64,000 bases of DNA from Escherichia coli. Its GTDB lineage: Bacteria > Pseudomonadota > Gammaproteobacteria > Enterobacterales > Enterobacteriaceae. The position numbers were made by a program, and so were the translations under genes. Below the pieces are notes generated by a model. It ran no database searches. It was not told the DNA's origin and was given only the letters and a program-made list of their open reading frames with translations. The stretch lies in NCBI RefSeq assembly GCF_003334815.1, contig NZ_QOWO01000015.1; one strand, given 5' to 3'. Positions 30,152 to 41,979 of this stretch are shown here, in pieces. The first letter of the stretch is position 1. Each line of letters begins with the position of its first letter.

Positions 30152-30319
30152 ATGAGTTTTTTTAAAGCTCGTAATTAATGGCTAAAACGAGTAAAGTTCA
30201 CCGCCGAAAATTGGGCGGTGAATAACCACGTTTGAAATATTGTGACATATGTTTTGTCAAAATGTGCAACTTCTCCAATGATCTGAAGTTGAAACGTGAT
30301 AGCCGTCAAACAAATTGGC

Positions 30320-40010: not shown

Positions 40011-40175
40011 TGAGGAACAGCGCGATCGGCAGCCGCGTTGTATCAGGCATCCTTTCAGACTCCTCCGAATCCTTAAGTATTTCCAGCCATTCCCGCGCTT
40101 TTCATCTTCTGTCTGATAGCTGCTTTTCTCCTTCGCTTGCATGATTGGCATAACTGCAAAGAAGGAGGTGTTCCC

Positions 40176-40746: not shown

Positions 40747-40781
40747 TCGCTCAGGCTGAGGGGCTTTTTTTGCGACTTATT
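40747..40781 (+). terminator. ycfJ Rho-independent terminator
   Basis: GGCCCCTCA-TTCGCTCAGGC-TGAGGGGC stem followed by TTTTTTT. Confidence 0.8.
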
Positions 40782-41409
40782 TCACCAGTTCGGGCCATAA
40801 ACGCAAAGTCGTTCCGGCAATCTGCATCAGTTTTTCCAGCGATGCACCTTCGCGTGCGCTGATCGACATCCCCTGAATAATACAATTAAGGAATTCTGCC
40901 AGATGTGTCACGTCACAGTGGGGCGGGATTTCCCCGCGCGCTTGTCGTTGACATAAAAACTGCTGCAAAGTGCGCTCTTGCATCGCATGGCGTGATTTCA
41001 ACGTATTGGCGATATCTCCTGAATCTGGGGAGAGGGTGGTGCAGTTGTTGATCATGAAGCAGCCTGCCGGGGTGTCTTTGCTGGTAAAGCAGTTGGCGAT
41101 GGCAGCAAAATAGTCAGCCAGCGCAGACTCCACGCTTTTCTCTTCACAAAACAGCTGTGCTTCATGCTTAGCGGCAAAACGATCGATATAGCGGTCGAGA
41201 ACGGCACGAAATAACCCCTCTTTGTTGGTAAATTCCGCGTATAGCGTGGGCGCTTTGGCTCCGGTCGCTTCGACGAGGTCCGCAAGAGAAGTCGCTTCAT
41301 AACCGTGTTGCCAGAACAATTTCATGGCCTTATCAAGCGCGGCATCCCTGTCGAACACTTTTGGGCGGCCACGGCTTTTTTTTACACATTGTGTTGAGTC
41401 AGTTGCCAT
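40777..41409 (-). CDS. comR: TetR-family repressor ComR (YcfQ), 210 aa
   Basis: ORF-track frame 40777..41487; ATG at 41409 gives MATDSTQCVKKSRGRPKVFDRDAALDKAMKLFWQHGYEATSLADLVEATG, a TetR HTH. Confidence 0.9.
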   Translation of the reverse strand: MATDSTQCVKKSRGRPKVFDRDAALDKAMKLFWQHGYEATSLADLVEATGAKAPTLYAEFTNKEGLFRAVLDRYIDRFAAKHEAQLFCEEKSVESALADYFAAIANCFTSKDTPAGCFMINNCTTLSPDSGDIANTLKSRHAMQERTLQQFLCQRQARGEIPPHCDVTHLAEFLNCIIQGMSISAREGASLEKLMQIAGTTLRLWPELVK

Positions 41410-41564
41410 GATGCCGTTGTACCTGGTGACTGTGAATGAAAGGTTATTATAAAAATAATCACCTCCGTTCACCAGTCCAGATCCCATAAAAATAATTGCT
41501 TTCTATTTAACTGAAATTTAAAGATTTTTAAATTAATTAATGATTGTTATAAAAAATATCTTGT

Positions 41565-41582
41565 ATGTGATCCAGATCACAT
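41565..41582. promoter_or_regulatory. 18-bp inverted repeat ATGTGATC-CA-GATCACAT (core TGTGA-N6-TCACA) in the comR-bhsA divergent region
   Basis: Near-perfect palindrome with exact CRP half-sites, 68-85 nt upstream of bhsA and about 160 nt upstream of comR. Confidence 0.55.
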
Positions 41583-41649
41583 CTATCATTTAGTTATCGA
41601 TCGTTAAGTAATTGCTTGCGACGTCATTCATCTGCATAAGGCCACTATT

Positions 41650-41907
41650 ATGAAAAACGTAAAAACCCTCATCGCTGCGGCGATTTTAAGCTCCATGTCA
41701 TTTGCCAGCTTTGCGGCTGTCGAAGTTCAGTCAACGCCAGAAGGCCAACAAAAAGTCGGTACAATCAGTGCTAACGCGGGGACAAATCTGGGATCGCTGG
41801 AAGAGCAGCTGGCGCAAAAAGCGGATGAGATGGGCGCAAAATCTTTCCGTATTACTTCTGTAACCGGTCCGAATACCCTCCATGGAACAGCAGTAATTTA
41901 TAAATAA
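41650..41907 (+). CDS. bhsA: Multiple stress resistance protein BhsA (YcfR/ComC), 85 aa
   Basis: 85-aa secreted YhcN-family ORF MKNVKTLIAAAILSSMSFASFA. Confidence 0.92.
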   Translation: MKNVKTLIAAAILSSMSFASFAAVEVQSTPEGQQKVGTISANAGTNLGSLEEQLAQKADEMGAKSFRITSVTGPNTLHGTAVIYK

Positions 41908-41945: not shown

Positions 41946-41979
41946 TCCCCGCGACATGCCGTGTCGCGGGGATTTTTTT
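41946..41979 (+). terminator. bhsA Rho-independent terminator
   Basis: CCCCGCGACA-TGCCG-TGTCGCGGGG 10-bp stem followed by ATTTTTTTA. Confidence 0.85.

Follow-up and report, generated by a model that had tools for sequence, protein, structure and literature searches.

In the 64 kb stretch of Escherichia coli DNA that was analysed as a whole, referred to here as the window, the TetR-family gene comR (ycfQ), which encodes a copper-responsive repressor, and the stress gene bhsA (ycfR/comC) lie back to back across a shared intergenic spacer. The DNA is that of K-12: in a 20 kb comparison with W3110 there are 3 mismatches and the comR-bhsA spacer is identical. The original prediction described this spacer as 240 bp long and AT-rich, which it is (31% G+C vs. 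52% across the window), and it has been marked as H-NS-associated in a SELEX study, an association that we take as the reason for its composition. The features on which the following discussion depends are as follows:

40777-41409, minus strand: coding sequence of comR (ycfQ), a TetR-family protein of 210 aa
41446-41459, minus strand: conserved block ATTATAAAAATAAT, with TATAAT on the comR strand at 41451-41446
41537-41550, no strand assigned: box O1, TTAATGATTGTTAT, just upstream of the bhsA -35 hexamer, candidate upstream ComR operator
41561-41566, plus strand: predicted bhsA -35 hexamer, TTGTAT in Escherichia, from sequence and conservation
41565-41582, no strand assigned: palindrome ATGTGATC-CA-GATCACAT, dyad at 41573.5, lying in a 22-bp CRP site at 41563-41584
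41566-41581: CRP core, TGTGATCCAGATCACA
41584-41589, plus strand: predicted bhsA -10 hexamer, TATCAT, from sequence and conservation
41594-41607, no strand assigned: box O2, TTATCGATCGTTAA, over the predicted bhsA start, candidate main ComR operator
41650-41907, plus strand: coding sequence of bhsA (ycfR/comC), the gene under regulation (85 aa)
41947-41979, plus strand: intrinsic terminator of bhsA (G+C-rich hairpin, then a T run)

Several of the elements in and around the spacer deserve a brief mention in their own right. The ATTATAAAAATAAT block is the probable -10 element of comR. A mechanically derived comR reading frame extends to an ATG at 41487 (40777-41487, minus strand, 236 aa) and a large public cluster of gene calls uses that start; the 236-aa version is an over-extended call, and the 210-aa start at 41409 fits the conservation. 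On the bhsA side, the 5' untranslated region contains a TTCATCTGC block (41627-41635) that immediately precedes the ribosome-binding site and has been conserved among genera; it may serve in translational or small-RNA control. A direct repeat, TCCAGATCCCAT/TCCAGATCACAT, was also considered and was treated as a chance occurrence, its upstream copy not being conserved.

The palindrome itself, ATGTGATCCAGATCACAT, consists of two perfect 8-nt inverted arms, at 41565-41572 and 41575-41582, which are separated by a non-symmetric CA. It had been described as an 18-bp palindrome with exact CRP half-sites, and both the sequence and the coordinates proved exact. The TGTGA-N6-TCACA core occurs a single time in the window, at 41566-41581, against a mean of 0.05 in shuffled sequence (any match in 5 of 100 shuffles), and the 16 specified arm bases are likewise matched once when up to 2 mismatches are allowed, with 0.03 matches expected. 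When the surrounding 22-mer (41563-41584) is aligned with the textbook CRP consensus, AAATGTGATCTAGATCACATTT, 18 of the 22 positions are identical. The palindrome is found at 1168988-1169005 in MG1655 and at 1170565-1170582 in W3110, and of 5423 complete E. coli genomes, 5320 carry the 40-mer around it at no less than 99% identity.

A CRP site at bhsA is already known from ChIP-seq, curated databases and a cAMP dose-response. In the enterotoxigenic (ETEC) strain H10407, CRP ChIP-seq gave a high-confidence peak assigned to ycfQ/bhsA with the motif TGTGATCTGGATCACA (Haycocks et al., 2015; PMC4287617). This motif is the reverse complement of the window site, and the 16-mer occurs once in the comR-bhsA spacer of H10407 (NC_017633.1, 1275049-1275064); the ChIP-seq evidence for the site thus comes from ETEC rather than from K-12. 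In NC_017633.1 coordinates, the printed peak centre falls short of the motif by 170 bp, and that of the ptsG peak falls short of its own motif by 227 bp. We considered whether the printed centre denotes a different target and rejected this, reading the shift as an offset between coordinate systems, because motifs were searched for only within 50 bp of peak centres (PMC4287617) and because the ptsG peak is similarly displaced. The site also scores exceptionally well. With a symmetrised weight matrix built from the other 106 ChIP-seq motifs, the bhsA site being left out, it scores 21.3 bits, where 21.97 is the maximum, and comes first among the 107 bound motifs, the median of which is 13.1 bits. 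The next-best 16-mer in the window reaches 12.2 bits, and the third-best match, at 12.1 bits, is the known ptsG CRP site, recovered at 30295-30310 as a positive control; it reads CGTGATAGCCGTCAAA and is listed on the opposite strand, as TTTGACGGCTATCACG, in the ETEC ChIP-seq table.

The direction of the CRP effect is also on record. An incoherent type-2 feed-forward loop is by standard definition one in which CRP represses comR, ComR represses bhsA and CRP represses bhsA as well. In an analysis of CRP feed-forward loops based on EcoCyc/RegulonDB, bhsA together with comR was placed in this class, with CRP as repressor (Yang et al., 2018; PMC6121374). In the same work, microarray values for bhsA in a cyaA tolC strain given 0-10 mM cAMP were 0, -0.24, -0.42, -0.96, -1.09, -1.66, -1.74, and -1.94 (log2) (PMC6121374), that is, bhsA mRNA falls approximately 3.8-fold as cAMP rises, a response which could be partly indirect. 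The EcoCyc label “regulated by CRP-cAMP” for bhsA has also been quoted elsewhere (Westphal et al., 2016; PMC5155068).

Comparison across the family indicates which part of the palindrome is maintained. One genome per species was scanned, which gave 80 Enterobacteriaceae loci with a comR orthologue (72-97% identity), and loci of Salmonella, Buttiauxella, and Dryocola were added to this set. The two genes are divergent in 78 species with a spacer of mostly ~240 bp, and in the 76 loci measured, the bhsA ATG follows a CRP-like site at a distance of 72.5-84.5 bp. Over the 78 species the left GTGA and the right TCACA are nearly invariant (mean 1.95 bits) and the GA preceding TCACA is kept, whereas the first T of the core is variable (0.69 bits) and the four central bases are free (0.60 bits); the N6 centre takes 27 different forms. 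Only at distances 4-7 from the dyad are the paired positions complementary in 99-100% of species; the figure drops to 63% at 8, to 28% at 9 and to 17-45% at 1-3, and the pairs at 1-3 and 9-10 are complementary in just 4-45% of species. The full 18-bp palindrome is limited to E. coli, E. whittamii, and E. albertii (3 of 78 species). With the CRP matrix, the best site in each of the 76 genome-scan orthologues scored reaches 13.8 bits or more and so exceeds the median for the bound motifs (13.1 bits). Because the core is conserved and scores this well in every scored orthologue, we regard the CRP core, and not the longer palindrome, as the element under selection.

A few loci in this set are unusual. 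In two Pluralibacter loci (L058 and L063) the spacer measures 354 and 426 bp rather than ~240 bp, with the extra DNA between the comR promoter block and an intact O1-CRP-O2 module. The bhsA gene of Citrobacter amalonaticus (L014) apparently has a frameshift, caused by one additional A in an A-run, which points to a pseudogene or a long-read assembly error. An assembly titled Chryseobacterium sp. 18061 (L048) carries a typical Enterobacteriaceae comR-bhsA locus, with a ComR 77% identical, and is probably contaminated or mislabelled. Among the candidates checked, no species with bhsA but without comR was found; Buttiauxella and Dryocola have comR and the same architecture.

The best sigma-70-like pair of hexamers on the bhsA strand flanks the CRP core in 74 of 78 species. 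This pair typically consists of TTGACG (65 species), a gap of 17 or 18 bp and TATCAT or TATGAT (63 species), and TTGACG stands one base further to the left than the Escherichia hexamer, abutting the CRP core. The 16-bp core therefore occupies the -35/-10 spacer of the predicted bhsA promoter. The E. coli -35 hexamer, TTGTAT, is weak, and a simple scan puts another pair, at 41468-41496, one point higher. From these hexamers, the bhsA start would fall near 41596, with the CRP dyad at approximately -22.5. The change from TTGACG to TTGTAT in Escherichia weakens the -35 hexamer and extends the CRP match, and it is in this way that the near-perfect palindrome arose.

Taken together, it is very probable that the palindrome is a near-consensus cAMP-CRP site in the -35/-10 spacer of bhsA that acts in repression, and that ComR acts separately, most probably through O1 and O2. 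At high cAMP, a CRP dimer would bind the site between the two hexamers and would there exclude RNA polymerase, leaving bhsA repressed. Occlusion of this kind is the mechanism of repression that we infer from the promoter map, and it fits the published repression because the CRP core fills the promoter spacer. ComR, for its part, would act apart from CRP, most probably through two 14-bp boxes, related to TTAACGATCGTTAA, on either side of the core promoter.

The original prediction left open whether the palindrome is the ComR operator, a CRP site, or both. The CRP part of this statement is borne out by the ChIP-seq, curated-database and cAMP evidence, whereas the ComR-operator part is not upheld. 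On the latter reading, ComR binds the palindrome alone or shares it with CRP, and copper and cAMP compete for one element. A good palindrome in the promoter of a ComR-repressed gene that is divergent from comR is indeed the usual TetR-family arrangement. However, the 8-nt arms are confined to the three Escherichia species although ComR is 72-97% identical across the set, the inner bases of the palindrome vary freely, and symmetry is kept only at the CRP contacts. Other sequences in the spacer are better placed for this role. O2 is one mismatch from the perfect palindrome TTAACGATCGTTAA, and O1, for which the commonest bases over the 78 species are TTAACGATCGTTAT, is a second, related copy 57 bp away in E. 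coli. The most conserved stretch of the spacer, the nearly invariant TATCGATCGTTAAG just 3' of the -10 hexamer (41595-41608), contains most of O2. Measured from the CRP dyad, O2 lies at +26/+27 with at most 3 mismatches in 78 of 78 species (at most 2 in 75), and O1 at a fixed -30 in 65 of 78 (at most 3 mismatches), against approximately 0.03 chance matches per shuffled spacer at that threshold. A third box, a weak match overlapping the comR -10 block, was seen in 14 of 78 species; in some genera GAACGATC precedes the block and makes up this weak box.

More distant relatives of ComR allow the boxes and the CRP site to be told apart. Two loci with relatives of ~50% identity, L092 (52%) and L093 (49%), came from a search of cluster representatives. 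In the former (GCA_046449555.1, 1-2000) the ComR relative is divergent from a tandem array of four bhsA-like genes (85 aa each), every one of which has a separate promoter of the form O1/-35/-10/O2, and in the latter it is divergent from a small AraC-like gene. O1-like and O2-like boxes are found 52-57 bp apart in all five of these promoters. A CRP-like sequence between the boxes is absent in three of the five; of the others, one has a match that is weak (12 bits) and shifted by 5 bp, and one, in L092, has a strong CRP site (TGTGATGTTCGTCACA, 18.3 bits) that lies upstream of the promoter rather than inside it, 25 bp 5' of the centre of the O1 box. The boxes thus follow the regulator and a CRP site in the same register does not, and we therefore assign ComR to O1 and O2, which are probably its operators, although as a sequence-based assignment they remain putative. 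A review, a secondary source for this point, places the ComR site 60 bp upstream of the comC ATG. O2 spans 43-56 bp upstream of the ATG (36-63 bp with its flanks) and is compatible with that position, whereas the palindrome spans 68-85 bp. It is therefore unlikely that the palindrome is itself the ComR operator, and the view that its occupant could not be decided from sequence was too pessimistic, comparative analysis being able to separate CRP from ComR. Some additional ComR contact with the palindrome may nevertheless exist.

Published ChIP-exo of YcfQ gave three sites, at cspA, metR, and uxuA, and none in the comR-bhsA spacer (PMC8464067); this is uninformative with respect to O1 and O2, neither supporting nor excluding them. 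A further ChIP-exo site in the supplement of that study, belonging to a different candidate transcription factor, is assigned to “ycfQ” there but actually lies within the ndh-ycfJ spacer, at 40050-40096 of the window (MG1655 1167473-1167519).

Two Enterobacter-like species (L059 and L068) have comR without bhsA, and there comR faces a gene resembling the 3' part of the neighbouring ldtC (locus positions ~1040-1500). O1, the CRP site and O2 have been lost together in both, while the ATTATAAAAATAA block of comR is kept. Because all three elements disappear with bhsA, we conclude that they serve bhsA and not comR; this joint loss does not discriminate among the three.

CRP is an activator more often than a repressor, and the site could accordingly be read as an activating one, serving either comR from an upstream position or, as a class II site, a bhsA start near 41615. 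The dyad at 41573.5 would stand at -41.5 relative to a start at 41615, and curated networks also tie CRP to comR. However, bhsA declines monotonically with cAMP, no acceptable -10 element is found at 41602-41609 (TTAAGT lacks the key A2), and the conserved hexamers put the site within the promoter spacer. For comR, the probable -10 (41446-41451) is ~130 bp away and is still present in L059 and L068, where the CRP site has been lost. An activating role is thus very unlikely in either direction.

The palindrome contains two GATC sequences (41569-41572 and 41575-41578), raising the idea of a Dam-methylation-sensitive element at which CRP occupancy and methylation influence each other. Within the spacer, GATC starts at 41480, 41569, 41575, and 41599, with two of these in the CRP site and one in O2, and a GATC in the non-coding region at bhsA has been found to change in methylation over long-term stationary phase (Westphal et al., 2016; PMC5155068, Table S2). 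When we mapped this variably methylated GATC (ZK126 1072523/4) via W3110, no single offset fitted both the bhsA and the yccS positions, and downstream sites differed in offset. Against this idea, GATC is part of the CRP consensus, so that its presence needs no further explanation, the right-hand GATC alone is conserved, and heritable states are without evidence; we consider a Dam switch at this site extremely improbable. That the palindrome is a chance occurrence, or a cruciform or hairpin element without a protein partner, in a spacer where short inverted repeats are numerous, is refuted by the conservation of the half-sites at a fixed position in 78 species together with the ChIP-seq peak, and is further opposed by the 0.03-0.05 occurrences expected per window and by the weakness of the DNA hairpin (-4.6 kcal/mol, z -2.15). 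In Rfam, no family matched at the palindrome, and the only matches in the region, all sub-threshold, fell on the terminator hairpin of bhsA.

The preferred reading, a repressing CRP site inside the bhsA promoter with ComR at separate boxes, can be set beside several known systems. Like canonical E. coli CRP sites, the bhsA site has perfect pentamers, 6-bp spacing, in vivo binding and the expected pattern of conservation, but it is nearer to the consensus than most natural sites and its flanks match only in Escherichia. The galP2 and cyaA P2 promoters are repressed by CRP from sites that overlap the core promoter. They resemble bhsA in that CRP lies within the RNA polymerase region and transcription falls with rising cAMP, whereas bhsA has the whole 16-bp core between its hexamers and a second specific repressor in ComR. 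To our knowledge, the repressed bhsA promoter has no CRP-activated twin. In the TetR/tetO and AcrR type I arrangement, a TetR-family repressor is divergent from its target and binds palindromic operators (PMC6790063). The divergence of comR and bhsA, with two related 14-bp palindromic boxes flanking the target promoter, fits this pattern, but here the candidate operators are O1 and O2 and not the palindrome that was reported. Autoregulation of ComR is reported as absent, as relayed by a review. In Klebsiella pneumoniae, KP1_4563, a gene of the DUF1471/YhcN family, is described in outline as being under CRP control (PMC5521740); it offers a parallel as a small BhsA-like gene under CRP, but is a different gene at a different locus.

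A more elaborate arrangement, comparable to CytR-CRP or the Gal repressosome, may be envisaged, in which CRP is more than a roadblock and its sharp bend, midway between O1 (30 bp away) and O2 (27 bp away), draws the boxes towards each other and stabilises a ComR-DNA loop over the promoter. We regard this as unlikely, but if it were true, a single nucleoprotein complex would respond to both cAMP and copper, and Escherichia would have tightened that complex by trading a good -35 hexamer (TTGACG) for TTGTAT and a better CRP site.

With the repressing CRP site as the preferred reading, what has been gained is a comparative answer to the question of CRP vs. ComR, a candidate for the ComR operator at nucleotide level and a promoter map that predicts repression through occupancy of the -35/-10 spacer. 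The position of the CRP site in that spacer, its sharpening in Escherichia alone at a cost to the -35 hexamer, and the O1 and O2 candidates are modestly new. For the biology of E. coli, the CRP site makes a gene of outer-membrane stress and copper permeability answer to carbon status by way of cAMP, a link which is already part of the curated E. coli network.
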